A stretch of DNA of 32,000 nucleotides, from assembly GCA_020059585.1 (NCBI GenBank), contig JAGVBU010000005.1, positions 1-32,000 of the forward strand, written 5' to 3'. Positions 1-26,208 of the stretch are shown piece after piece; the stretch's first letter is position 1, and every line of letters starts with the position of its first letter. Below the pieces are notes generated by a model. That model was not told the DNA's origin and did not search any database. It saw only the letters and a list, made by a program, of their open reading frames with translations. Made by a program: the position numbers and the translations under genes. This DNA comes from Minisyncoccota bacterium (GTDB lineage: Bacteria > Patescibacteriota > Minisyncoccia > UBA6257 > GWB1-50-10).

Positions 1-345
1 ATTGCGACTGAAAGGAGCGGGCGAGGCGCAAAGATCATTCGTCAAAATCCTGCGGATTTTGTCCGAAATACATTCGAACTTCGTCCAATACACACCGCAA
101 AAAAACCAGTATCACATTGATACTGGTTTTGCATTCTCTTCGCGGAGAGGAGCAACACAACTGCTTGTGTTGCGAGAGGGATTCGAACAGCGGAGCGTTA
201 TTCCATCAGCAGATGGAATCGTGAGCTGGTGCCCAGACCGGAATGATTCGACGGAATCATTCCGAGTCGAGGGCGAATCCCTTTCTGTAGCGACGGCGAA
301 CCGAGAGTCGGAGCCGAATCCCTCTGTAAACGAATGGTGAATGGG
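1..345. ncRNA. Unclassified hairpin-dense, stop-free segment; possibly structured RNA (family and strand not identified)
   Basis: Five perfect stem-loops with unrelated sequences: 43-61 (8 bp), 106-126 (9 bp), 152-173 (9 bp), 200-219 (8 bp), 239-264 (11 bp). An 11-nt long-range complement pairs 175-185 agagggattcg with 315-325 cgaatccctct. Imperfect ~38-nt tandem units lie at 262-300 and 301-337. ORFs 2..340(+) and 112..450(-) are both open, which palindromy can explain. I recognised no protein motif. Confidence 0.3.
99..131 (-). terminator. Rho-independent terminator hairpin, bidirectional in form but stronger on the minus strand
   Basis: Stem ccagtatca (106-114) / tgatactgg (118-126) with loop cat. 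It is flanked by A7 (99-105, read as T7 on the minus strand) and by tttt (127-130) on the plus strand. Confidence 0.5.
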
Positions 346-353
346 GATATAAT
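325..353 (+). promoter_or_regulatory. Putative promoter of the MazG-like gene (-10 TATAAT at 348-353, weak -35 tgtaaa at 325-330)
   Basis: A perfect TATAAT sits 6 nt before the ATG at 360. There is no Shine-Dalgarno sequence in between. The -35 matches only 3 of 6 positions. Confidence 0.3.
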
Positions 354-359
354 CAAAAT

Positions 360-740
360 ATGTCCGATATTCAAAAATTAACCGGTTTGATAAAGAAGTT
401 TTGTGAGGAGCGGAACTGGAAGCAGTTCCACAATACGAAGGATCTTGCAATCTCCCTGAATCTCGAGGCGGCGGAAGTGCTTGAGCATTTCCAATGGAAG
501 AGCGAGGAGGAAGTGAGGGAATATCTGAAAACGCACAAAGAGCACGTGGGAGAGGAGCTTTCGGACGTGCTTTATTGGATTTTGCTCATGAGCGACGATC
601 TTGGAATCGACATCGCGGACGCATTTGAGAAGAAAATGAAGAAAAACGAGGAAAAATATCCGGTGGAGAAGGCGAAAAACAGGCATAATAAGTATAATGA
701 ACTCGCGAAAGATCATGAATCAAAAAAAGAAAAAGAGTAA
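360..740 (+). CDS. MazG-like all-alpha nucleoside triphosphate pyrophosphohydrolase
   Basis: 126 aa. NWKQFHNTKDLAISLNLEAAEVLEHFQWK followed by ELSDVLYWILLMSDDLGIDIADAFEKKMKKNEEKYP is the typical MazG/dCTPase-type EexxE...D helix pair. Confidence 0.85.
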   Translation: MSDIQKLTGLIKKFCEERNWKQFHNTKDLAISLNLEAAEVLEHFQWKSEEEVREYLKTHKEHVGEELSDVLYWILLMSDDLGIDIADAFEKKMKKNEEKYPVEKAKNRHNKYNELAKDHESKKEKE

Positions 741-759
741 TATAAAACCAAGAGGGAAA

Positions 760-1575
760 ATGGCAAAAATTCTTCAATCAATAGATAAAAAACCCTATTT
801 CATTGGAGGGGATAGTTTTGTCTTGTTCCACGGAGATAGTGTTGAATTACTCTCTAAATTACCCGAAAGTTCAGTAGATATGATTTTTGCCGATCCCCCA
901 TATAACCTCTCGAATGGAGGTTTTTCGGTACACGCAGGGAAGCGTGTAAGTGTAGATAAAGGAGATTGGGACAAAAGTAGAGGATTTAAGGATGACTATG
1001 AGTTCCACTACAGATGGCTCGAGGCGTGTAAAAGAGTTTTGAAGCCGGGAGGGACACTGTGGGTGAGTGGAACATATCATTCGATATATCAATGCGGACA
1101 TGCGATGCAGGCGCTTGGATATCATATCCTCAACGATATTTCATGGTACAAACCAAATGCGTCACCAAATTTAAGTTGTCGATTTTTTACCGCAAGTCAC
1201 GAGACACTCCTTTGGGCAAGGAAAGAAAAAAAAGCGAAACACACCTTCAATTATAAATTGATGAAAGAGGGAGATTGGCACAATGAGGATTTTATAAAGA
1301 AAGAAAATAAACAGATGCGTTCCGTGTGGTCCATTAATACTCCAAAACCATGGGAGAAGAAGTTTGGGAAACATCCTACACAAAAACCGATTTCGTTACT
1401 TCATCGCGTTGTACTTGCAAGCACAAAACGCGGGGATATTGTGATCGATCCTTTTACTGGAAGTTCTACCACCGGATTATCAGCAGTAAAACACGGAAGG
1501 AAATTCATTGGCATTGATACCGATTCAAAATACCTTGATCTGTCGATCAAGAGATACAAAAGTGATTTTGCATAA
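760..1575 (+). CDS. Beta-class DNA methyltransferase, probably N6-adenine (N4/N6 MTase family), M subunit of a type II R-M pair
   Basis: Motif IV FADPPYNL precedes HPTQKP and motif I VIDPFTGSSTTG, which is the beta-class order. Start chosen at ATG 760 (agagggaaaATG, SD-like) rather than ATG 697, which would overlap the MazG-like gene by 44 nt. Confidence 0.85.
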   Translation: MAKILQSIDKKPYFIGGDSFVLFHGDSVELLSKLPESSVDMIFADPPYNLSNGGFSVHAGKRVSVDKGDWDKSRGFKDDYEFHYRWLEACKRVLKPGGTLWVSGTYHSIYQCGHAMQALGYHILNDISWYKPNASPNLSCRFFTASHETLLWARKEKKAKHTFNYKLMKEGDWHNEDFIKKENKQMRSVWSINTPKPWEKKFGKHPTQKPISLLHRVVLASTKRGDIVIDPFTGSSTTGLSAVKHGRKFIGIDTDSKYLDLSIKRYKSDFA

Positions 1576-1583
1576 ATAAGAAT

Positions 1584-2105
1584 ATGATAGAAAAAGGATT
1601 TGGGGGAGGAAATACAAAAACCGGTCTCAATTTTGAAAACGAAAGAGATCTTCTTAAAGTCCTCGAAAAAACAAAGGGCTATTCTATAAAAGATTCAATT
1701 ATTTATTACAAAGGTGAAGAGGTTGCAAGGAGTTTTAGAAAAAACGCTCTTTATAAATATCTTGAATCAAGAAAACTTGATTATAGAAAATATATATCGA
1801 AAAAACTTCTTCCTGATGACGCTATCTACGTGATCGTGAATAATACGCTTTTTATTGTGGAGATGAAGTTTCAAAAAGTTGCTGGATCGGTAGACGAAAA
1901 ACTACAGACTTGTGACTTTAAGGTAAAACAATATCGAAAATTGATGGCTCCTCTTAATATCGAAGTCGAGTATATTTATATTCTTAATGATTGGTTTACA
2001 AAACCAGAATACAAAGATGTTTTAGATTATATCATTTCAGTAGGATGCTATTACTATTTCAACTATTTACCCCTACAAAAACTAGGACTTCCTGTTCCAA
2101 AGTAA
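1584..2105 (+). CDS. Putative type II restriction endonuclease (PD-(D/E)XK fold), cognate to the upstream methyltransferase
   Basis: 173 aa, starting 8 nt after the MTase stop. LLPDDAIYVIVNNTLFIVEMKFQK gives P77-D78 ... E93-x-K95, a PD-(D/E)XK signature. I could not recognise the specific enzyme family. Confidence 0.6.
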   Translation: MIEKGFGGGNTKTGLNFENERDLLKVLEKTKGYSIKDSIIYYKGEEVARSFRKNALYKYLESRKLDYRKYISKKLLPDDAIYVIVNNTLFIVEMKFQKVAGSVDEKLQTCDFKVKQYRKLMAPLNIEVEYIYILNDWFTKPEYKDVLDYIISVGCYYYFNYLPLQKLGLPVPK

Positions 2106-2230
2106 TTTTTTATTCTCATAAAGAAAGCTCAAGTTTTAAATAAAAATCACGACAGAGATCCAAACAGCAGAGCTAAATTTCGCAGATAAATATTTAGTAT
2201 TGGAATGATCCATAATATCATAATAAAATC

Positions 2231-3841
2231 ATGAAAATAACTAGAATTGAGATTGAAAATTTTAGGTCCATTGAGAAATATGATTTTCTAGTAAAAGATT
2301 TTAATGTGTTTGTGGGACAAAATAACCACGGTAAGACAAATCTTTTTGATGCCCTAGATTGGTTTGATTCTGGTAAAACAGATAGAGCAAACTATAGAAA
2401 CCACGATGCCACCCTTCCTATCAAAGTAAGGGTTCATTTCTCACAAGTACAAGAAACATTATTATCTCTTCCTGAGGGAGCTTATCGAACCGCCATACAA
2501 AACGTGCTTCATGAACACGACAGTTTAATTGTTGAAAAAACCAGTGAAGATGATAAAAGAGCGCTAATTATAAATAAAAATAGAATTACTAATCCCAGAG
2601 GTTTTGATTCTGCTCTTAATTATTTTTTACCAAAAATTGTTTATGTAACTACGAAACATAGACTTTCTGATGTGGCTAGCTATAAAGCAAAGTCTCCTAT
2701 TGCGGAAATGCTTGGAGATGTTCTTGTGGACATGGTAGATCATGAACCAAAGTATAGAGATTTTCTCGATCTTTTTAACGATCTTTTTAATACAAGCACG
2801 TCAATATTTCGAAAGTCCGTTAATGATTTACAACGTAGAGTTGAATTTTATCTTTCAAAACAATTTGCGGAAGGGACAACCGTGACGTTTCGTATAGAAA
2901 ATCCCGAGGTTGAAGATATGCTTAAAAAGTTTGAAACTGAAGTTGATGATGGAGTAAAAACCAAAGCAGAAGAAAAAGGAGATGGAATGCAAAGAGCTAT
3001 TATGTTAGCTATAGTTCAGGCTTACGCTGATTATAGAAAAGAAAAAGGAATAGCTAGGAACTTTGTGTTCTTAATAGATGAAGCGGAACTTCATTTACAC
3101 CCAACAGCTCAGAGATCTCTCAAAAAAGCACTGCGAGATATTGTTGATAACGGAGGACAGGTTTTTATTAATTCTCATTCTTCTATTTTTGCAAATGAAA
3201 TATTTGAAAATCAAAAAATTTTTAGAGTTGAAAAAAGGGCTGGCGTTTCGTGTGTTTCGGAGATTGAAGGAAAACAAGAACAATTGGATTCTATTTATCA
3301 ACTACTTGGAGGTAGCCCAAGTGATATTTTGTTGCCAAGTAATTTCATAATAGTTGAAGGTAAGTCTGATTACGAATTTCTTAAAAGGATTATTATGAGA
3401 TTTTATGGAACAAATAATAAATGTCAGCAAATAAAAGTATTGTTTGCTAATGGAGATATTGAAAGAGAAGGGGAGCTTTATCATCGTATCCATGAGACAT
3501 ATAAACCTCTTCTTACTAATGGCATTTACAAAAACAAGGTAGTTTTTTTATTAGACAAGCCTCATCCCTCAAAAAAAACACAATACGAAGAATTTAAAAA
3601 GTCTCATCCTTATTTAGTCGAAGGAGAACAGATACAAATCTTACCTGTTTCAGCATTGGAGATGTACTATCCAGAACCTTACAAAAAAACAGAAAGTGAA
3701 GTAAATGGGATGACGCAAGTAAAAGTAAAGGTTGATTTAGCAAAAGAAGTCGGTGACTCTATAACACTTCAGCAACTCAAAGAAAGCATGCCGATGATTG
3801 TCGTTACTCTCGATAAGGCAGTAGAACTTGCTTACGAATAA
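2231..3841 (+). CDS. OLD-family (GajA/Old-like) ABC-type ATPase with C-terminal Toprim-like domain
   Basis: 536 aa. N-terminus MKITRIEIENFRSIE, Walker A GQNNHGKT (aa 29-36), signature-like GDGMQRA (250-256), Walker B FVFLIDEAELHLHP (278-291), H-loop INSHS (313-317). IIVEGKSDYEF (373-383) is a Toprim-type EG motif. Confidence 0.8.
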   Translation: MKITRIEIENFRSIEKYDFLVKDFNVFVGQNNHGKTNLFDALDWFDSGKTDRANYRNHDATLPIKVRVHFSQVQETLLSLPEGAYRTAIQNVLHEHDSLIVEKTSEDDKRALIINKNRITNPRGFDSALNYFLPKIVYVTTKHRLSDVASYKAKSPIAEMLGDVLVDMVDHEPKYRDFLDLFNDLFNTSTSIFRKSVNDLQRRVEFYLSKQFAEGTTVTFRIENPEVEDMLKKFETEVDDGVKTKAEEKGDGMQRAIMLAIVQAYADYRKEKGIARNFVFLIDEAELHLHPTAQRSLKKALRDIVDNGGQVFINSHSSIFANEIFENQKIFRVEKRAGVSCVSEIEGKQEQLDSIYQLLGGSPSDILLPSNFIIVEGKSDYEFLKRIIMRFYGTNNKCQQIKVLFANGDIEREGELYHRIHETYKPLLTNGIYKNKVVFLLDKPHPSKKTQYEEFKKSHPYLVEGEQIQILPVSALEMYYPEPYKKTESEVNGMTQVKVKVDLAKEVGDSITLQQLKESMPMIVVTLDKAVELAYE

Positions 3842-5885: not shown

Positions 5886-6359
5886 ATGCACATAGAAACG
5901 CTCACAAAATTTTTGAACGAGGCGAATAAAGCAACGTATGCGGATAAGAACGCGGAAAAAGCCGTGTCTTCGCGTGCGGGATCAAAAGAGTATCATTTTG
6001 AGAAGGGCGGATTCGCGTACCATGACACCTATTTCGGAAGCCGTGATTTTATCGGAGAGGAAATTGTGTACGAAAACGGAGATCCTGTGTGGGGGATGAA
6101 TTATTTTGGCGTTGTCCTCGACGAAGAAGTGAGTGAAAAGGAGGTGTTCGATTTTCTTAGGGAAGCACTCATGCAAGAATATGAGGATGTGATTCCTGTC
6201 CGAGGACCGAGCAATTTTTCTTCTGGAGACAAAGAATATCGCTTTTCGGTTGAGGGAGATTTTGCAAATTTTTCCGGCAAGGAAGAAATCTTATTTGGCG
6301 AAAAGGTTGTATATCGATGTCTGGTACACGGAGGGGTTATAGAAGAAAGTAGTAAGTAG
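5886..6359 (+). CDS. Conserved hypothetical protein, DUF5680-like (name assignment tentative)
   Basis: 157 aa. ATYADKN...YHDTYFGSRDFIGEEIVYENGDPVWGMNYFG resembles the DUF5680 pattern as I recall it. A TATAAT lies at 5848-5853 and aaagagga lies upstream. Confidence 0.6.
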   Translation: MHIETLTKFLNEANKATYADKNAEKAVSSRAGSKEYHFEKGGFAYHDTYFGSRDFIGEEIVYENGDPVWGMNYFGVVLDEEVSEKEVFDFLREALMQEYEDVIPVRGPSNFSSGDKEYRFSVEGDFANFSGKEEILFGEKVVYRCLVHGGVIEESSK

Positions 6360-6388
6360 TAAGTAGAAAATAGTAAGTAGAAAGTATT

Positions 6389-6574
6389 AGGTATAAAGTA
6401 TTACGTATGAAGAAAGAAGAAATTAAACTAGGAAAATACAAGCACGAGCATAAATAATTCTCAAATTTCAATTCTCAATTTTCATTAAATTTTCAATATA
6501 CAAATCATAATGACTGAAAAAATCAAAAGTGAATCGTTTGAGATCATAGGAGAAGGTATAAAGTATTACGTATG
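6389..6574. repeat. 21-nt perfect direct repeat aggtataaagtattacgtatg (6389-6409 and 6554-6574)
   Basis: Read directly from the sequence. The flanks continue with similarity (atgAagaaaGaa versus atgCagaaaAaa). The copies are 165 nt apart in an AT-rich spacer. Confidence 0.8.
6456..6498. repeat. Tandem 14-mers aattctcaaatttc / aattctcaattttc plus a partial third unit
   Basis: Read directly. A closely related tandem pair, aattttcaattcac / aattttcaattttt, occurs at 11551-11578. Confidence 0.7.
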
Positions 6575-7380: not shown

Positions 7381-8016
7381 TTTCTCCCAGAAGAACCGCA
7401 CTTTGGGTTCCTCATTTCTTTTGATCCGCGAAAAGTTTTCACCGTGACGCAGATACACCACCACGGATGCGATAGCGGTGAAAAGAAGCGCGTCATGAAA
7501 AACAATGAGCGTGAGCGCGAAAACGAAGACCACCGCGCTTACCGACGCCACCGACACGTATCGCTCCATATAAAGCATCGCGAGAAACGCCGCGATTCCG
7601 CCGAAAAGGAAGAAGGGGTGCGCAAGCGCAAGGATCACGCCGATGCTTGTCGCGACTCCTTTTCCCCTGCGGATTCCGGAAAAGAGCTCGCAGGAAAATG
7701 GATTCGTATTACCAAGAAGCACCGCCACGCCGAGAAGATTCTTCAGAATCGCGCTCTCGAAAAACATACTGAGAAAGTGCACGGCAAGAAATGCCTTGCA
7801 CGCGTCGAGAATCAGCACGAGTCCGAAAAGAAAGATCTTTTCAAGCTTGTTCTTTCCCGTGCGCGCCACGTTTGTCGCGCCGATATTTCCCGAACCCTTC
7901 TTCGTGATATCCACGCCCCGTATTTTTCCTATAAGGAATCCCGAGGGTATCAATCCAATGAAAAAAGAGGCGATAAGGGAGATAAGGAACAGCAGGATGC
8001 CTGTAGGCGTATCCAT
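7369..8016 (-). CDS. plsY: Glycerol-3-phosphate acyltransferase PlsY
   Basis: GSGNIGATNVARTG motif in a multi-TM protein. Start set at the MDTPTG ATG (8016), preceded by aaaaaggagagcattt. The longer 304-aa ORF extension has no support. Confidence 0.85.
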   Translation of the reverse strand: MDTPTGILLFLISLIASFFIGLIPSGFLIGKIRGVDITKKGSGNIGATNVARTGKNKLEKIFLFGLVLILDACKAFLAVHFLSMFFESAILKNLLGVAVLLGNTNPFSCELFSGIRRGKGVATSIGVILALAHPFFLFGGIAAFLAMLYMERYVSVASVSAVVFVFALTLIVFHDALLFTAIASVVVYLRHGENFSRIKRNEEPKVRFFWEKEKN

Positions 8017-16446: not shown

Positions 16447-17673
16447 ATGAATTTTTGGAATAAAAAAACCGCATTCGGATACACGCTCGCCGCGATTATT
16501 CTTGTGGGAGGTGTTTCTTTCTTTGCTGGAATCTATCATGGAACATCGAAAAATATCGAGGCTCTTCCTGTGGCAAAAGCTCAGACGCAAAATCTTCCTA
16601 ATGCCGATTTTTCGCTTTTCTGGGATGCAATCGCGGTGATTAAGGAAAAATATTTTGACGCGAACACGGTCACGGACGAACAGCTTCTTTATGGAGCGAT
16701 ACGAGGAGCATTTGAATCTCTTGATGATCCGTATTCGGGATTTTTCGAACCGAGTGACGCGAAAAAATTCCATGAAGACCTGAGTGGAAGTTTCGGCGGT
16801 ATAGGAGCAGAAATAGGACTTCGGGACGGACAGATCGTCATCGTTGCGCCCCTGAAAAACACTCCTGCGGAGAAAGCGGGAGTTATGGCGGGAGACAAAA
16901 TACTCGAAGTGAACGGAAGTTCAACCGCGGGACTTATTGTCGAGGAAGCGGTGAAGATGATCCGCGGGGAACCCGAAACCGTAGTAACGCTCCTTATGAT
17001 GAGAGAGGGGTGGAGTGAGGCGCGCGAAATTCCCATAGAACGCGCGATAATCACGGTTCCTACGCTTGAGTGGGAAATGAAAAAAGGAAATATTGCGTAC
17101 GTGAAACTCAACAATTTCAACGCAAATGTTCCCGAGCTTTTCTATCAGATGGCTCTCCCGATGCTCATGCAAAAACCGAATGGAATCATACTCGACCTGA
17201 GAAATAATCCCGGAGGATTCCTTGACGTATCCGTGCGCATCGCGGGATGGTTCCTCGATCGGGGAGATATCGTGGTGCGGGAACGCTTCAATACGGAGGA
17301 AGAGGACAGATTCTACGCAAACGGAAACGCATCGCTCGCGTACGTCCCTCTTGTTGTTCTTGTAAACGAGGGTTCGGCATCCGCATCCGAAATACTCGCC
17401 GGCGCTCTTCGGGACCATAGGGGAGTAATGCTTGTGGGAGAAAAGACATTCGGAAAGGGAACTGTTCAGGAGGTGAAGGACATGAGAAACGGATCATCGG
17501 TCAAAATTTCGATTGCGGAATGGCTGACACCGAACGGAAATTCCATAAACAAGAAGGGACTCGAACCTGATTATGAGGTAAAAATGACAGAGGAGGATAT
17601 AAAGGAAAAGAGGGATCCGCAGCTCGAAAAAGCAATTGAAGTCATGAAAGAGGAAATTAATCTTCATTTTTAG
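16447..17673 (+). CDS. ctpA: S41 family C-terminal processing peptidase with PDZ domain
   Basis: N-terminal TM, PDZ region (GGIGAEIGL...AGVMAGDKILEVNG), and catalytic NEGSASASEILAGAL and GEKTFGKGTVQ motifs. ATG 16447 is preferred over the TTG at 16399. Confidence 0.9.
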   Translation: MNFWNKKTAFGYTLAAIILVGGVSFFAGIYHGTSKNIEALPVAKAQTQNLPNADFSLFWDAIAVIKEKYFDANTVTDEQLLYGAIRGAFESLDDPYSGFFEPSDAKKFHEDLSGSFGGIGAEIGLRDGQIVIVAPLKNTPAEKAGVMAGDKILEVNGSSTAGLIVEEAVKMIRGEPETVVTLLMMREGWSEAREIPIERAIITVPTLEWEMKKGNIAYVKLNNFNANVPELFYQMALPMLMQKPNGIILDLRNNPGGFLDVSVRIAGWFLDRGDIVVRERFNTEEEDRFYANGNASLAYVPLVVLVNEGSASASEILAGALRDHRGVMLVGEKTFGKGTVQEVKDMRNGSSVKISIAEWLTPNGNSINKKGLEPDYEVKMTEEDIKEKRDPQLEKAIEVMKEEINLHF

Positions 17674-17678
17674 GAATA

Positions 17679-18113
17679 ATGAAAGTTATCTTTCTGAAAG
17701 ACGTCAGGGGAGTGGGAAGGAAAAATGAATTGAAGGAGGTTCCAGACGGATACGCAAGGAACTTCCTCATTCCAAAGAATCTCGCAAAGCACGCGCTTGT
17801 TAAAGATGTGAATTCTCTCGCGCAAAAAGAAAGCGACGCGGCCGCGCATAAAAAGAATTTGAAAGAAAAAGCGGAAGCAACGGCGGCGACAATAAAGGGA
17901 AAAACATTCACGTTCCGGATGCGAATAGGGGAAAAGGGAGCGCTCTTCGGCTCCATTGGAATTAATGACATAAGCGAGAAATTAAAAGACGCGGGATACG
18001 CAGGTACCCCCATCCTCGAAAAAAACATAAAAGAAACAGGCACGAAAGAAATTACCATTGATTGCGGAGAGGGAGTGCGCTCAAAAATATTTATAGAAAT
18101 ACTTCCCGAATAA
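17679..18113 (+). CDS. rplI: 50S ribosomal protein L9
   Basis: MKVIFLKDVRGVGRKNELKEVPDGYARNFLIPKNLA. Confidence 0.95.
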   Translation: MKVIFLKDVRGVGRKNELKEVPDGYARNFLIPKNLAKHALVKDVNSLAQKESDAAAHKKNLKEKAEATAATIKGKTFTFRMRIGEKGALFGSIGINDISEKLKDAGYAGTPILEKNIKETGTKEITIDCGEGVRSKIFIEILPE

Positions 18114-18143
18114 AAATCCCGCCAGTCTAATAGACTGGCGGGA
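18112..18143. terminator. Strong hairpin between convergent rplI and rpmA
   Basis: Stem tcccgccagtc (18117-18127) / gactggcggga (18133-18143). A T-run (read from aaaaa at 18112-18116) follows on the minus strand only. Confidence 0.6.
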
Positions 18144-18155
18144 CTATGTAGGTAT

Positions 18156-18431
18156 TTATACGATCACACTCACCACTTTCACCATCCGTTTCGTTCCGTC
18201 ATATTTCACTTTCTTCTTCGTCGCGAATTTCACAAGCCCCTTCTTTGAAGCGTAAAGGGTGTCATCGCCTCCGCGCCGGACATTTATTCCGGGGTAGTAT
18301 TTCGTTCCGCGCTGACGGATGATCACTTCTCCCGCGCCCACGGCCTGCCCGTCACCGCGCTTTACGCCAAGGCGTTTTGATTCGGATTCTCTTCCTAATT
18401 TAGTAGAGCCTTTGGCTTTTGTATGTGCCAT
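18156..18431 (-). CDS. rpmA: 50S ribosomal protein L27
   Basis: [48 protein letters not shown]. Confidence 0.95.
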
Positions 18432-18497
18432 ATCAGATTAATATAATAACTAAACCTTACACGATATATCCCAACGACAATCGGGAATTCGTGTATA

Positions 18498-18701
18498 ATG
18501 ATAAAAAAAAGAGGGGGAAAAGTCAATTCCAAAGAAAACTCACCTATGGAAAATTTCTATAAAAAGAAGGAGGGGATTGTCGCAATGCTCACCGTCGCGC
18601 TTTTTCTTACTGCGGTATTTCTTACCGGATATTTCGTCGGAAAATCCGAAAATCGGATTCCCATCATAATAGAAAAGTGCAGCGAGACCGAAAAACCCTA
18701 A
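18498..18701 (+). CDS. Small hypothetical membrane protein (start uncertain; alternative ATG at 18546)
   Basis: One hydrophobic helix (IVAMLTVALFLTAVFLTGYFV). There is no clear SD, and the ATG at 18498 sits inside a TATAAT (18494-18499). Confidence 0.3.
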   Translation: MIKKRGGKVNSKENSPMENFYKKKEGIVAMLTVALFLTAVFLTGYFVGKSENRIPIIIEKCSETEKP

Positions 18702-19462
18702 AGATAACCGACCTCTTTTAATATCGATTCGTTTTCCCATTCCCAAAGCTTTTTTGCCCCAAGAAACGCACGATAATCGGGTTCCCATTCGGGAAACTCC
18801 TTAAGCTCGACAATACCCTCCGTCGGCCCCCATTCGTGCCGACAACGCCACATTTCCTTGTTCCCGAACTGTGTTTTCACCTGAGGACGCCCTCCTTTCG
18901 TGCGAAGCAGAGCGCCGCAACGCACGCATTTTTTTGCCTGATCGATGCGGAGAATCCAGCGGGTCTCAAGGTCGGGGATTATATCCTTCATTGCGGCAAC
19001 GTATGCCGAGGTCTGAAGATTATAATCTCTGTAAATCTCCTGAGACGTCTTTATGTCGAGAATCCCTTTTTTCCCGCCGATCGTGGCAATCGCGTCAAGA
19101 GTTCCCGCGTATCGCTCGCCACGATGCACAAGCCGCAATTCAACGAATTCCGGATGTACCTCAATGTTATTCTCTTTTTGAAAACGCAGAAACGCGTCTA
19201 CGGAAGGGGAGATGCGCGGATCAACTGTCGGGGTCTTTCCTACAAGGAAATCCTCAACCGCCTCGTGCACCATTGTTCCTTCTTCGGCGGAAAGTTTTTT
19301 CATCCGTTCTCCGGCCTCGAAATTCTCCATACGCGCGTAAAACCTATAGAGCGCGGGTTTTGCTTTGATCTCCACGATCTTCGTGACGCGGGGATACCAT
19401 GTGTCTTCAATGACGTATCCGTGACTTTCCAGAAAGTCCTCCTTGTTCTTGAAATCATTCAT
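18698..19462 (-). CDS. PD-(D/E)XK nuclease superfamily protein (Cas4/RecB-exonuclease-like core) with Cys-rich insertion
   Basis: GTLDAIATIGGKKGILDIKTSQEIYRDYNLQTSAY gives D...D-x-K...Q..Y. A CVRCGALLR...WRCRHEW insertion lies near the C-terminus. Confidence 0.6.
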   Translation of the reverse strand: MNDFKNKEDFLESHGYVIEDTWYPRVTKIVEIKAKPALYRFYARMENFEAGERMKKLSAEEGTMVHEAVEDFLVGKTPTVDPRISPSVDAFLRFQKENNIEVHPEFVELRLVHRGERYAGTLDAIATIGGKKGILDIKTSQEIYRDYNLQTSAYVAAMKDIIPDLETRWILRIDQAKKCVRCGALLRTKGGRPQVKTQFGNKEMWRCRHEWGPTEGIVELKEFPEWEPDYRAFLGAKKLWEWENESILKEVGYL

Positions 19463-20944: not shown

Positions 20945-21370
20945 ATGAATGGATCACTGGATACCGTCACCGTCCCGACAATATTCGGAGAAAAAAAGGT
21001 TTTTCGAAGTTCCGAATTAGCGGAAGCATTTGAAAAAGGCAATTGCTGTGTACATAGAATGCCCAACGGAGACGTTAAAAAATGCGTGTTTTTCGAAAAC
21101 ATAGAAAAACATATCGGCGAGATACGGGCAGAACTTGGCGGAGACGAAGAAGTCATCGGAAGACAGCTCAGAATGGACGCCACGGCGCTTCTCAACAATT
21201 CCCTTGTCCATACACAGGGAAAAATGGGGGAGACGCTTAGACGTGGAAGATCGCTGTGCCCCGTAGCATTTCTTGCAATCGTAGTAAGAGCAAATACCGG
21301 AATGGATATTGCCGTGTTTCAATGCCCATTCGTATCGCAGAAAAAAATAAATTCCCGAAAAAGAAAGTAA
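20945..21370 (+). CDS. Hypothetical protein (141 aa, Cys-containing, no recognised domain)
   Basis: SD aaaggag lies 7 nt before the ATG at 20945, and a strong hairpin follows downstream. Competing antisense ORFs lack such signals. Confidence 0.5.
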   Translation: MNGSLDTVTVPTIFGEKKVFRSSELAEAFEKGNCCVHRMPNGDVKKCVFFENIEKHIGEIRAELGGDEEVIGRQLRMDATALLNNSLVHTQGKMGETLRRGRSLCPVAFLAIVVRANTGMDIAVFQCPFVSQKKINSRKRK

Positions 21371-21386
21371 GGAATAAGAGTATCAA

Positions 21387-21424
21387 AAGACCGGCAGAGG
21401 AGTGTCCTCTCGCCGGTCTTATTT
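21387..21424. terminator. Long hairpin after the 141-aa ORF
   Basis: Outer stem aagaccggc (21387-21395) / gccggtctt (21412-21420), inner stem agagg/cctct. It is followed by attt on the plus strand and by tttt on the minus strand. Confidence 0.55.
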
Positions 21425-21433
21425 ACATTCTTA

Positions 21434-21643
21434 TCTGTCGCACAATATATGTTTTGCGACACTTTAATATAAAGTGGCGTAAAACATAGTCACGATTGTG
21501 CGTACAAGAAGGTCTCTGTCGCACAATCGCTCTTTACGACAGTTTATACTGTCGTAAACGGTATTGGCTACTTGTGCGACGCAAACGTTTTTGTGTACGC
21601 ACAAGTAGCCTTTGCGACACTTTAATATAAAGTGGCGTAAAAC
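21434..21643 (+). repeat. Three tandem, diverged copies (~79-nt period) of a two-hairpin module; candidate ncRNA locus
   Basis: A perfect 33-nt direct repeat tttgcgacactttaatataaagtggcgtaaaac occurs at 21453-21485 and 21611-21643. A diverged middle copy tttacgacagtttatactgtcgtaaac lies at about 21533-21559. These alternate with hairpins built on tgtcgcacaa/ttgtgcgaca (21435-21460, 21495-21527, 21566-21610). A possible promoter is TTTACA (21422-21427), N18, TATATG (21446-21451). Confidence 0.5.
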
Positions 21644-21650
21644 TCGAAAT

Positions 21651-21681
21651 AAAAATCCGGGGGTTTCCCGGATGGATTTTT
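21651..21681. terminator. Bidirectional terminator
   Basis: Stem atccggg (21655-21661) / cccggat (21667-21673). The T-run ttttt (21677-21681) follows on the plus strand and ttttatttcg on the minus strand. Confidence 0.65.
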
Positions 21682-21685
21682 GAAA

Positions 21686-22132
21686 TCATTTTATCTTCTG
21701 AGCATAATACTCAATCGCCCTTGCGACGGGTTCCCACTTCCCATCCCAATAATATACGACAAGCCACAAAACTGACTCCCGCGGGGTCATATTCACGAAA
21801 ATTTCATGAAATTTCTCATGATCTCGCTTGTCGACGGGCACCAGTATAATTTCGTCGCATTCAAGGACTCCTCGCTCAAACGTTCTCTTTACAAGGGCGT
21901 TTACGAGAAAAAACCATCGTCTGCCCCAGAATTTTTCAACAAGAAAAACAAGAACCTCAAAAGGATTTTTTGATCCGAAAAGTTTCCTGTATTTGATCAT
22001 CTGATCGTCTGCCACAAGATGGTTCAGCATTTTTCCAGCGATTCTGGACTGCGGAATCACATGATGCTGAGTTTTCTTTTGTAAGGACTGTTTTCTTTTC
22101 CCGTGCTCTTTTCTTCTGCCACGGCCGTTCAT
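21686..22132 (-). CDS. Small HNH-like (His-Me finger-like) protein, tentative
   Basis: 148 aa from ATG 22132 (aggagcgagcatatATG). HHVIPQSR, then ...YRKLFGSKNPFEV and later DHEKFHEIFVNMTPRESV, resembling the HH-x-x-P-x-SR ... H-x-x-x-H-x-x-F-x-N-x-TP-x-E small HNH family. Confidence 0.5.
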   Translation of the reverse strand: MNGRGRRKEHGKRKQSLQKKTQHHVIPQSRIAGKMLNHLVADDQMIKYRKLFGSKNPFEVLVFLVEKFWGRRWFFLVNALVKRTFERGVLECDEIILVPVDKRDHEKFHEIFVNMTPRESVLWLVVYYWDGKWEPVARAIEYYAQKIK

Positions 22133-24924: not shown

Positions 24925-26208
24925 TTAAGAAGGGATCTCTATGTATTTCATCGGATCAATGTCTCCTCCCACGGGCATCGGCCCGCATACGCGGGACGCC
25001 TGCGTTCCTTCCGGAAAACCTGAGCGCGCGGGGGTCAGCGTATTTGAGGCAAACACAGTGAAATGCAGATGAGCGCCCGTCGCCCATCCCGTGCGTCCCA
25101 TGTATCCTATTATTTCTCCCCTTTTTACAACGCTTCCCACAGCAACGGTATACCGCGACATATGGCCATACAAGGTAGTAAGCCCGTTCGTATGTTTTAT
25201 AACGACAAATTTCCCATACGCGGCGCCACGGCAATAATTATCCTGATTTCCCACATTGATCACCGTTCCATCTTCCGCGGCGACGATTTCAGCTCCAAGA
25301 AATCTTCCGATGTCTATGCCGTTATGGTACTGACTCTTATATGTTTTAATCGCAAAAGAGGTTCTCCCATACGCCTGCGTCAATCTCCCTTCGGGAACCG
25401 GCCAAAGCAAGACGCCTGCCCGAGGAAGAGGCAAAAGATTCGGGTCTATGTTTTTTCGCAATTCGTTTTCTATCTTTTCTATATCTGAAGATATCTCGTC
25501 CTGTAATTTTTTGAGTTCGTTTATCTGTACCTCATATACCTTTTCCTGATCTTTCGTCTGAGAGAGCAGGGTTTGTTTTTCTTTTTTTTGATCTTCGAGT
25601 ATATACTGGCGATCTATGAGGTTCACGCTTTCGATTTTCTTACTTTGTTTTTTGTGTTCTTGCTCGTAAACTTTTTTACTGAGATTTTCCTGCAGTTCGC
25701 TTAATTCCTCAAGTTGAACAAGCAATCCATTGTTGAGATTGGAAATCGCCTGTATCTCCCCTACCGCCTCCGCAAGACTCCTGTTCCTCAAAAAAATGAC
25801 GAGAAAATTCTCATTTCCTTTCTGCTGAAGTTCGGAAAAAAGCCTTCCGACGGTCTGTTTCTTGTTCGTAATGTTCTGTTCAGTTTCCTCAATGTCCTCA
25901 TGGAGAGAATTTATCTCAAGATCCAATTTCTCGACGGTAAGCTCATTCGAACGGACAAGCATCTGAAGTTGAGTGATTGTGCTGTTCACGTATCGGATTT
26001 CGCCGGAAAGTTTGTTGCTTGATTTACTCACCTCATCGAGCTGCTTCTGGAGTTCTTTCCTCTGAGCCTCAAGCTCCTTAAGCGCCGATGCCTTTTGATC
26101 TATAAGACTCCTCAGTTCCACGGACGCCTGTCCGGAAACAATAGCGGGAATTGTGCCGAATCCTATCGCGATAAAAAGAAGAAGAAATTTCCATGTATGC
26201 GTCATCAT
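24925..26208 (-). CDS. M23 family metallopeptidase with N-terminal coiled coil
   Basis: Signal/TM segment, then a long coiled coil. HNGIDIG (HxxxD) and GAHLHFTVF (HxH) motifs are present. Confidence 0.9.
   Translation of the reverse strand: MMTHTWKFLLLFIAIGFGTIPAIVSGQASVELRSLIDQKASALKELEAQRKELQKQLDEVSKSSNKLSGEIRYVNSTITQLQMLVRSNELTVEKLDLEINSLHEDIEETEQNITNKKQTVGRLFSELQQKGNENFLVIFLRNRSLAEAVGEIQAISNLNNGLLVQLEELSELQENLSKKVYEQEHKKQSKKIESVNLIDRQYILEDQKKEKQTLLSQTKDQEKVYEVQINELKKLQDEISSDIEKIENELRKNIDPNLLPLPRAGVLLWPVPEGRLTQAYGRTSFAIKTYKSQYHNGIDIGRFLGAEIVAAEDGTVINVGNQDNYCRGAAYGKFVVIKHTNGLTTLYGHMSRYTVAVGSVVKRGEIIGYMGRTGWATGAHLHFTVFASNTLTPARSGFPEGTQASRVCGPMPVGGDIDPMKYIEIPS

Follow-up and report, generated by a model that had tools for sequence, protein, structure and literature searches.

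The DNA analysed here, called the window throughout, is the stretch of 32,000 nt that opens contig JAGVBU010000005.1 (positions 1 to 32,000 of the forward strand, assembly GCA_020059585.1) of a Minisyncoccota bacterium, a member of the Patescibacteria or candidate phyla radiation (CPR), and our subject is a cluster of hairpins at positions 21434-21681. To judge from sequence comparison, the 28 bp at 21435-21462 are very probably dif, the site at which chromosome dimers of this CPR bacterium would be resolved, and the hairpins that follow (21448-21643) are probably a DNA-level array of pseudo-sites for a Xer recombinase and not an RNA gene. We favour dif because of the spread of the sequence pattern, the GC skew of a replication terminus, the convergence of the flanking genes, the linkage to a Xer-type recombinase gene and the inovirus-like prophages that abut the site. 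What decides against a small RNA as the explanation of the array is that all of its arms copy a 28 bp site that is found throughout the Patescibacteria and behaves as dif does.

By its published definition dif is 28 bp long, has two 11 bp arms around a 6 bp centre, lies at the skew maximum and is surrounded by variable flanks; the centre varies between species (PMC5357621; PMC2731167) and was invariant within species in surveys (PMC2731167). In systems with a single recombinase the gene for that enzyme is linked to dif (PMC5357621; PMC2731167; PMC9765430). A Xer-family tyrosine recombinase would bind the 28 bp site and add one crossover at the replication terminus, and we infer that such an enzyme binds and acts at the site described here.

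A 28 bp site common to the Patescibacteria

The first palindrome of the cluster, a1 (21436-21448 paired with 21449-21461), was written as a 26 nt pattern, TGTCGCACAATATNNNTTTTRCGACA, with which one genome per GTDB species was searched. At least 119 loci match, all of them in different Patescibacteria assemblies and with a single match per locus, and the groups represented include Saccharibacteria, Paceibacterota and Nomura-, Kaiser-, Doudna-, Ryan- and Yonathbacteria; another 25 viral contigs match the same pattern. The flanks of the matched loci are unrelated, conservation being confined to the site. In pattern form the dif-like site reads RTGTCGCAMAANNNNNNTTKTRCGACAY, and one full site is present in the window and one in each 8 kb locus examined.

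Positions that the pattern had left free are constrained nonetheless: position 0 is a purine in 89 % and position 27 a pyrimidine in 95 % of cases, and within the centre A occupies c4 in 94 % and C occupies c6 in 95 %. This makes the element a 28-mer of 11-6-11 architecture, with the consensus R-TGTCGCACAA-TATAYC-TTTTRCGACA-Y, and it has dyad symmetry and an AT-rich core, ACAATATAT. The consensus centre TATAYC stands for TATATC in 58 % and TATACC in 21 %; the TATATG of the window is rare, being found in one of 118 species representatives. Even between strains of the species to which the window belongs the centre differs, with TATATG in the window and in loci L001 and L002 (loci are given L numbers) and TATACC in L003. 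Literature searches on a dif of the CPR and on the arm sequences produced no relevant paper, the sequence matches being primers in unrelated work.

Signature of a replication terminus

The flanks were compared at 72 genome loci with at least 1.5 kb on either side, each oriented by its site. In 64 of the 72 (p = 6e-12) the left flank has the higher GC skew, the means being +0.068 on the left and -0.042 on the right. Long open reading frames (ORFs) left of the site cover 130 kb on the + strand versus 26 kb on the - strand, and those to the right cover 115 kb on the - strand versus 28 kb on the + strand. In 67 loci the site falls between genes; the flanking genes are convergent in 51 loci and divergent in three. 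This combination of skew and gene convergence is the signature of a replication terminus and the opposite of that of an origin. In the window itself skew and gene orientation switch about 3.4 kb left of the site: the peak of cumulative GC skew and the orientation flip fall at ~17000-18700, with murC, a gene for a 254-aa PD-(D/E)XK-like protein and a 141-aa orphan lying between the switch and the site.

A recombinase gene adjoins the site in part of the collection. With a model built from the neighbouring recombinases, 16 genomes were found to carry a gene of ~310 aa on the same strand as the site, 454-1235 nt to its right (L015, L026, L029, L031, L034, L050, L054, L059, L061, L066, L074, L079, L091, L098, L099 and L102). 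These form one clade in which the centre is TATTAC or TATAAC, and the linked recombinase scores equally against XerC and XerD models (E ~1e-74). Among the nearest long ORFs (n = 150) Phage_integrase with a SAM-like N-domain is the second commonest family (11 of 150), after Peptidase_M23 (22 of 150). The Peptidase_M23 gene of the window lies at 24925-26208, 3.3 kb from the site. Genes for PD-(D/E)XK nucleases recur near the site as well (5 of 150 flanking ORFs), and the 254-aa gene of the window (18698-19462) gives weak Cas4-like matches only.

On viral contigs L131, L133-L135, L140 and L152 a conserved Zot-encoding, inovirus-like element ends at the site; beyond the site the host DNA differs from contig to contig, and the other prophage junction lies off the contigs. 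In L133 the element (63-3505) encodes a Zot-like ATPase (PF05707) and a 401-aa Gly/Ser-rich pIII-like protein, which may be the receptor-binding protein. This arrangement suggests that the elements are filamentous CPR prophages that use Xer and are integrated at dif. Taken together, these properties of the site agree with the published definition of dif.

Structure of the hairpin array

The locus had been described, in a reading of the sequence alone, as three tandem units of two hairpins each, and the sequence at 21434-21681 agrees with that description. The 33-mers at 21453-21485 and 21611-21643 are identical, where chance would give none; the stems are perfect over 13 bp (21566-21578 with 21598-21610) and 10 bp (21493-21502 with 21520-21529); and the middle copy is a perfect 11 bp palindrome (21533-21543 with 21548-21558) whose arms depart from the 33-mer arms at paired positions and still pair. 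The tandem period of about 79 nt holds loosely: the repeat families are spaced 75, 78, 81, 83 and 158 nt from start to start, but Tandem Repeats Finder calls no array at the locus. A region of 311 nt folds far better than its shuffled versions (z = -14.5 on the + strand and -13.4 on the - strand).

The cluster sits between a 141-aa ORF (20945-21370, +) and a 148-aa gene (21686-22132, -), both of which point inward. Strong hairpins had been proposed to bracket and insulate it as terminators. They are present at 21387-21420 and 21655-21673, the latter being a terminator hit on both strands, and both are terminator-like, but each is no more than the terminator of one of the convergent genes. A promoter proposed from the sequence, TTTACA-N18-TATATG, was not detected by a promoter scan of the window and is not conserved. 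Searches of the locus against Rfam at gathering and at permissive thresholds gave nothing credible, and ARAGORN found no tRNA or tmRNA.

A map of the arms gives the cluster a different meaning: all hairpin arms are copies of either the left or the right arm of dif. In the A-type hairpins two left arms, TGTCGCACAA, stand in inverted orientation; in the B-type hairpins the same is true of two right arms (TGTCGYAAAA on the opposite strand). Arm orientation alternates strictly along the array. Seven extra arms with at most one mismatch fall within ~210 nt of the window, against a background of 0.25 per kb. The features of the locus are as follows.

21387..21420, + strand: terminator hairpin of the 141-aa gene and left boundary; a 9 bp perfect inverted repeat, kept with changes in the sister species.
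21435..21462, + strand: dif-like site (site I), 28 bp, an exact match to the CPR-wide pattern and the sole full site with 6 nt spacing in the window; left arm TGTCGCACAA (21436-21445), central region TATATG (21446-21451), right arm TTTTGCGACA (21452-21461).
21448..21488, no strand assigned: hairpin B1, found as an inverted repeat, in which the dif right arm plus ATG pairs with an inverted copy; third arm TGGCGTAAAA (21475-21484), followed by CAT (21485-21487).
21475..21505, no strand assigned: inverted pseudo-site with long spacer, from the arm map; arm at 21475-21484, 11 nt spacer CATAGTCACGA, arm TTGTGCGTAC (21496-21505).
21493..21529, no strand assigned: hairpin A2, inverted left-arm-type copies with a 10 bp perfect stem.
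21517..21542, + strand: pseudo-dif site II, consisting of TGTCGCACAA, the spacer TCGCTC and TTTACGACAG; spacing 1 nt below that of dif.
21533..21558, no strand assigned: hairpin B2, a perfect 11 bp right-arm-type palindrome.
21550-21581: inverted pseudo-site with long spacer, from the arm map.
21566..21610, no strand assigned: hairpin A3, with a 13 bp perfect stem that extends to ~20 bp in the fold.
21595..21620, + strand: pseudo-dif site III, consisting of GTACGCACAA, the spacer GTAGCC and TTTGCGACAC; left arm degenerate in the arm map.
21611..21643, no strand assigned: hairpin B3, the 33-mer identical to 21453-21485.
21655..21673, no strand assigned: bidirectional terminator and right boundary, which ends the 148-aa gene; terminator hits on both strands.

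The head-to-head arm pairs thus listed are the true dif (spacer 6), the inverted pseudo-sites (11-13 nt) and the direct pseudo-sites II and III, in which the spacing is 1 nt below that of dif or an arm is degenerate. The CAT that follows the third arm of B1 complements c4-c6 of the dif central region, as it does in other lineages. Since every arm is a copy of a dif arm, the two-hairpin unit described earlier corresponds to a pseudo-dif site, whose left arm would lie in hairpin A and whose right arm would lie in hairpin B, with the 6 nt linker as the central region. An array of protein-binding inverted repeats had been among the candidates named for the locus; that candidate is the closest to the evidence and is essentially right.

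Neighbouring pseudo-site pairs are palindromic, which gives the A and B hairpins. As duplex DNA the pseudo-sites should be poor substrates for Xer, and a long-spacer site together with a short-spacer site could fold into one hairpin in which both arm duplexes are restored around a centre that is partly unpaired, the architecture of attP(+) in the CTX phage. The series of an inverted site with a 10-12 nt spacer, a loop and a site with a 4-6 nt spacer is present in the window and at at least 20 other loci, and the complementarity of its parts predicts the folded form.

The same construction in other lineages

At the 145 loci examined, the right side of dif is the only one enriched in extra arms. 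Six of 113 genomes have a third arm, with at most one mismatch, within 90 nt downstream, and three mirror controls gave 0, 0 and 2. When metagenomes were scanned for dif plus a third arm, 26 further loci with the composite were found; a scan for hairpin A3 returned 0 matches. The composite is seen in Paceibacterota (L075, with ~10 extra arms in 400 nt), Doudnabacteria (L081), Saccharibacteria (L085, L112) and many further bins. Its common order begins with dif, a loop and an inverted right arm joined to the complement of the resident c4-c6 (ATC/GAT, ACC/GGT or ATG/CAT), and ends, after 2-5 nt, with a left-arm hairpin, the stem of which reaches 3-7 bp into the following spacer, and with another right arm. 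Spacers in these loci are 10-12 nt in inverted sites and 4-6 nt in direct sites, and the spacer TCGCT(C) is common to distant lineages.

Homologues of hairpin A2 occur in L112/L178, L197 and L198, with stem extensions that covary. Among 18 aligned homologous left-arm hairpins, compensatory double changes are seen at eight of the 11 stem pairs and hardly any pair is broken, so that the divergence does preserve structure, as had been proposed from the three units of the window. The covariation table holds 10 G.U against 7 A.C, the G.U pairs across lineages number 44 on the top strand and 31 on the bottom strand, and the two strands fold about equally well. The pairing is therefore either selected or homogenised, and neither strand is marked as an RNA.

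Variation among strains and in a sister species

The 148-aa protein is encoded on six more contigs of the species. The window and loci L001, L002 and L003 have flanks that are 95-98 % identical and gapless over 2-2.3 kb, and their arrays differ by whole modules. The order in the window is dif-B1-A2-II-B2-A3-III-B3, that in L003 is dif-B2-A3-III-B3'-A4-B4-B5 and that in L002 is dif-B1-A4'-B4-B5, of which L001 is a shorter version. B2 is identical in L003 and in the sister-species loci L007-L011, in which it lies directly 3' of dif; the sister species carries dif-B2-A3-... directly after the same terminator. Relative to L003 and the sister species, the window has ~81 bp extra exactly between the left and right arms of dif, replacing the central region, and it is that single ~81 bp module that follows dif in L197 and L198.

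The segment 21515-21619, which holds A3, is 89 % identical to the sister species versus 67-72 % for murC, murE and other flanking genes, and L197 and L198 are ~80 % identical to the array versus 63-68 % in their flanks. The modules are therefore better conserved than housekeeping genes, and their arrangement changes within a species. The loop of A4 is inverted in L003 (~7540-7580) relative to L002 (~6030-6070) with the stem kept, which resembles the outcome of a flip-flop inversion across a short inverted repeat. Five independent assemblies (L003-L006 and L008) end inside or right at the array, a recurrent breakpoint that is probably due to strain mixtures and palindromes.

The 141-aa and 148-aa genes beside the array are orphans, for which homologue searches found relatives only in this species and one sister species; the 141-, 148- and 124-aa neighbours belong to no family in Pfam, NCBIfam, PHROGs or PADLOC. 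The 148-aa protein carries the motif HHVIPQSR ... HEKFHEIF, which has no family match, and the HNH-like label previously attached to this gene was not confirmed. The sister species has an orthologue of the 141-aa protein that is only 55 % identical, and it lacks the 148-aa gene, so that the array occurs there without that gene. Gene content beside dif is therefore in flux.

Origin of the array and alternative explanations

On the pseudo-site reading, the course that we favour is one in which modules are repeatedly gained, lost and swapped at dif by Xer-catalysed recombination or by recombination between homologous arms, with breakpoints at the junctions of dif arms and centre, and such exchange would make the array hypervariable between strains while arms and stems stayed conserved. 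That the array grows by Xer-mediated mini-insertions is a serious possibility, which we doubt slightly more than we believe it: end points at arm/centre junctions would fit Xer events, and recombination between 10 bp arm repeats would give the same end points. More tentatively, the two-hairpin units could be gene-less Xer parasites of 80-110 nt, comparable to miniature inverted-repeat transposable elements (MITEs), which mimic dif and spread between CPR lineages. We think this rather unlikely. Each unit would insert by Xer strand exchange between dif arms and leave a strain-specific stack of inactivated sites; if that were true, the stack would be a record of past integrations at the terminus and would represent a MITE-like class of integrative mobile elements exploiting Xer (IMEX). 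IMEX proper were rejected as candidates, the composite having no gene-bearing body and none being more than ~100 nt from dif.

Several observations weigh against dif, pseudo-sites or insertion by Xer. The cumulative skew of the window peaks near 18 kb and the site is at 21.4 kb. Perfect DnaA boxes (TTATCCACA) occur within 150 nt of the site at nine of 118 loci (L013, L030, L035, L044, L069, L076, L080, L097 and L124) where ~1.3 would be expected, despite terminus-type skew and gene orientation at these loci, and this excess is unexplained. Single-copy status is taken from one match per assembly among the at least 119 matches listed. Short-read contigs with an end inside the array are the source of some strain variants, assembly error being possible for L001, and the centres at strain junctions (TATATG, TATACC, TCGCTC and GTAGCC) are not simple products of one recombination event. 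Among all loci collected there was no composite of the folded phage-attachment (attP) kind away from dif with genes between, all lying within ~100 nt of dif, and the inovirus-like prophages carry the plain site only. Scanning the viral contigs for the left-arm hairpin joined to dif gave one unrelated terminator-like hairpin, and scanning them for right-arm palindromes gave 16 stand-alone matches in unrelated contexts, many of them apparently in coding sequence. The array may, moreover, be transcribed.

The sequence-only reading had put forward a tandem-hairpin small-RNA gene, transcribed between terminators and acting as a type III antitoxin-like RNA, a decoy or a guide. Such a gene would account for the very stable fold (z ~-14), for the compensatory stem changes, for modules more conserved than neighbouring genes and for the slightly better folding of the top strand (44 versus 31 G.U pairs), but we regard it as very unlikely. 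It has no Rfam match; its putative -10 lies in the variable central region of dif and is missed by the promoter scan; the wobble counts (44 versus 31, and 10 G.U versus 7 A.C) single out neither strand; the units are not near-identical direct repeats; the neighbours have no match in any defence family, ToxN-like or other; the array is also present where the 148-aa gene is missing; and the arm sequences are those of dif, including half of its central region. The RNA antitoxin of a type III toxin-antitoxin system was rejected, given diverged palindromes, inward-pointing neighbours, no toxin family, no conserved promoter and no strand bias. A CRISPR array (clustered regularly interspaced short palindromic repeats) was likewise rejected: two repeats only are identical, the would-be spacers are palindromes of the same arms and there are no cas genes in the window.

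Two further explanations accept the site as dif and differ on how the array arose or what it does. It could be functionless, produced by local fold-back (template-switch) inverted duplication and unequal exchange at a Xer-bound terminus where forks converge, with spacer changes then inactivating the sites. The palindromes begin inside the dif central region and include its flank, their spread is patchy (~5 % of genomes have a near-perfect third arm), the flipped hairpin loop between two strains shows palindrome-driven rearrangement and no element with a gene-bearing body was found, all as this origin would have it; yet distant lineages share the TCGCT(C) spacer, a GGCGCGA-type linker and spacings of 10-12 and 5-6 nt, the modules are conserved between species better than coding genes, and the insertion in the window relative to L003 is bounded exactly by dif arms. 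On this evidence we hold a fold-back origin to be somewhat improbable, though a genuine contender. Alternatively, the array might be a functional accessory region of CPR dif that loads or holds Xer, confers selectivity on resolution in the manner of the accessory sequences of cer and psi, or acts as a barrier to forks or a translocase. Its constant position on one side of dif, the constraint on arms and pairing and its recurrence in several CPR classes would suit such a role, but it is absent from ~90 % of the CPR genomes with a perfect dif, and strains of one species differ in how many modules they have and in what order, as would not be expected of an essential architecture; we consider the accessory role unlikely.

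The remaining explanations dispense with dif altogether. A palindrome of 26-28 bp might be the operator of a CPR-wide regulator (it is loosely NrdR-box-like), a partition site or part of oriC, and its dyad symmetry, its AT-rich core ACAATATAT and the DnaA boxes near nine loci would be in keeping with that. Such an identity is highly improbable, in view of one copy per assembly among the at least 119 listed, unrelated gene contexts, gene convergence and a skew polarity opposite to that of an origin, the absence of nrd, dnaA and parB genes from the recurrent neighbours, a linked Xer gene in 16 genomes and a prophage junction at the site. An NrdR box and oriC in particular were rejected on copy number, context and skew polarity. 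The least probable of the explanations considered is a dispersed repeat, whether a MITE, a BOX element or a repetitive extragenic palindrome or bacterial interspersed mosaic element (REP/BIME). Palindromes of alternating orientation between convergent genes, in strain-variable number and at a place where contigs break, do recall such repeats, but the exact arm 9-mer (TTGTGCGAC) is confined to the locus within the 32 kb window and has no other copies in the flanks of relatives, matches with one mismatch occur elsewhere at chance level, and in other genomes the arms cluster only beside dif, against a background of 0.25 per kb.

Other features of the window

The segment 2231-6359 is a low-GC island (23-34 % GC versus 45-50 % elsewhere) that encodes an AAA_15/AAA_21 (AbiEii/OLD-like) ATPase, a Schlafen AlbA_2-domain protein and a DUF5680 protein, and it looks like an acquired defence islet. 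Just after it, at 6344-6412, there is a tandem repeat of 7 nt (AAGTAGT-like, ~9 copies), which also has a 14 or 21 nt period.

Implications

The 28 bp motif gives the Patescibacteria, a very large group of which most members are uncultured and which is known almost only from metagenome bins, a mark of the replication terminus. Such a landmark helps in checking and orienting assemblies, in reading skew and in coverage-based estimates of growth, and it points to the recombinase system by which these minimal cells separate their chromosomes. As a near-invariant integration target, which filamentous prophages appear to use already, the site could serve genetic tools in the few Saccharibacteria that are cultivable and naturally competent. 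For what seems to be a stack of folded dif mimics beside dif without a phage body, we found no described counterpart in the literature. Should the units prove mobile, no smaller elements that exploit Xer would be known; should they prove immobile, they show how palindromes are bred at terminus sites. The array is in addition a hypervariable strain marker and a breakpoint of short-read assemblies.

Comparison with known systems

Like the dif sites of Escherichia coli (XerCD) and Bacillus subtilis (CodV-RipX), the CPR site has 28 bp, two partly symmetric 11 bp arms and a 6 bp centre, lies at the terminus or skew switch between unrelated flanks and varies in its centre between species. Its inner arm positions and AT-rich centre resemble those of E. 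coli dif, which we take to be GGTGCGCATAATGTATATTATGTTAAAT and which matches the CPR site at 17 of 28 positions. It is unlike both in the arm TGTCGCAMAA, in having two nearly identical arms and in being almost invariant across a superphylum.

The near-symmetric arms would suit a single recombinase, as in XerS/difSL, XerH/difH, archaeal XerA/dif and XerL/dif. As in XerS/difSL (PMC5357621), xer adjoins the site in one CPR clade, and, as with XerL/dif of Legionellales (PMC9765430), the site was recognised partly via mobile elements that use it. Unlike these systems, the CPR has xer linked to the site in only 16 of at least 119 genomes, the CPR recombinase scores equally against XerC and XerD models, and the 11-6-11 site differs from difSL (31 bp) and difH (~40 bp).

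ToxI arrays resemble the CPR array in that short tandem units lie between terminators beside small genes. They differ in being near-identical direct repeats upstream of a ToxN-type endoribonuclease gene on the same strand, whereas the CPR units are diverged palindromes downstream of both convergent genes. The Neisseria intergenic mosaic elements (NIMEs) with their dRS3 repeats are strain-variable intergenic arrays of units of 50-150 bp, and the short inverted repeats that bound each unit also serve as the attachment site of filamentous prophages; unlike the CPR array they occupy many loci per genome, involve a Piv-type recombinase and are unrelated to dif.

The attP(+) of the CTX phage of Vibrio cholerae consists of attP1 and attP2 in inverted orientation, is recombined with dif by a single strand exchange and leaves, on integration, dif beside inverted attP sites that flank the prophage (PMC3442271; PMC5357621). 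There too inverted dif-like sites fold on one strand and the duplex form is a poor substrate; in the CPR composites the folding is what complementarity would predict. The CPR loops are 4-35 nt as against ~90 nt in CTX, and the CPR units, of ~80-110 bp, form a tandem stack with no phage body between or beside the sites and no free element found. The pdif modules of Acinetobacter are similar in that alternating Xer sites bound modules that are shuffled among replicons and strains; they are gene-bearing, have complete 28-mers with 6 bp centres and reside on plasmids, whereas the CPR modules are gene-less hairpins beside a chromosomal dif.

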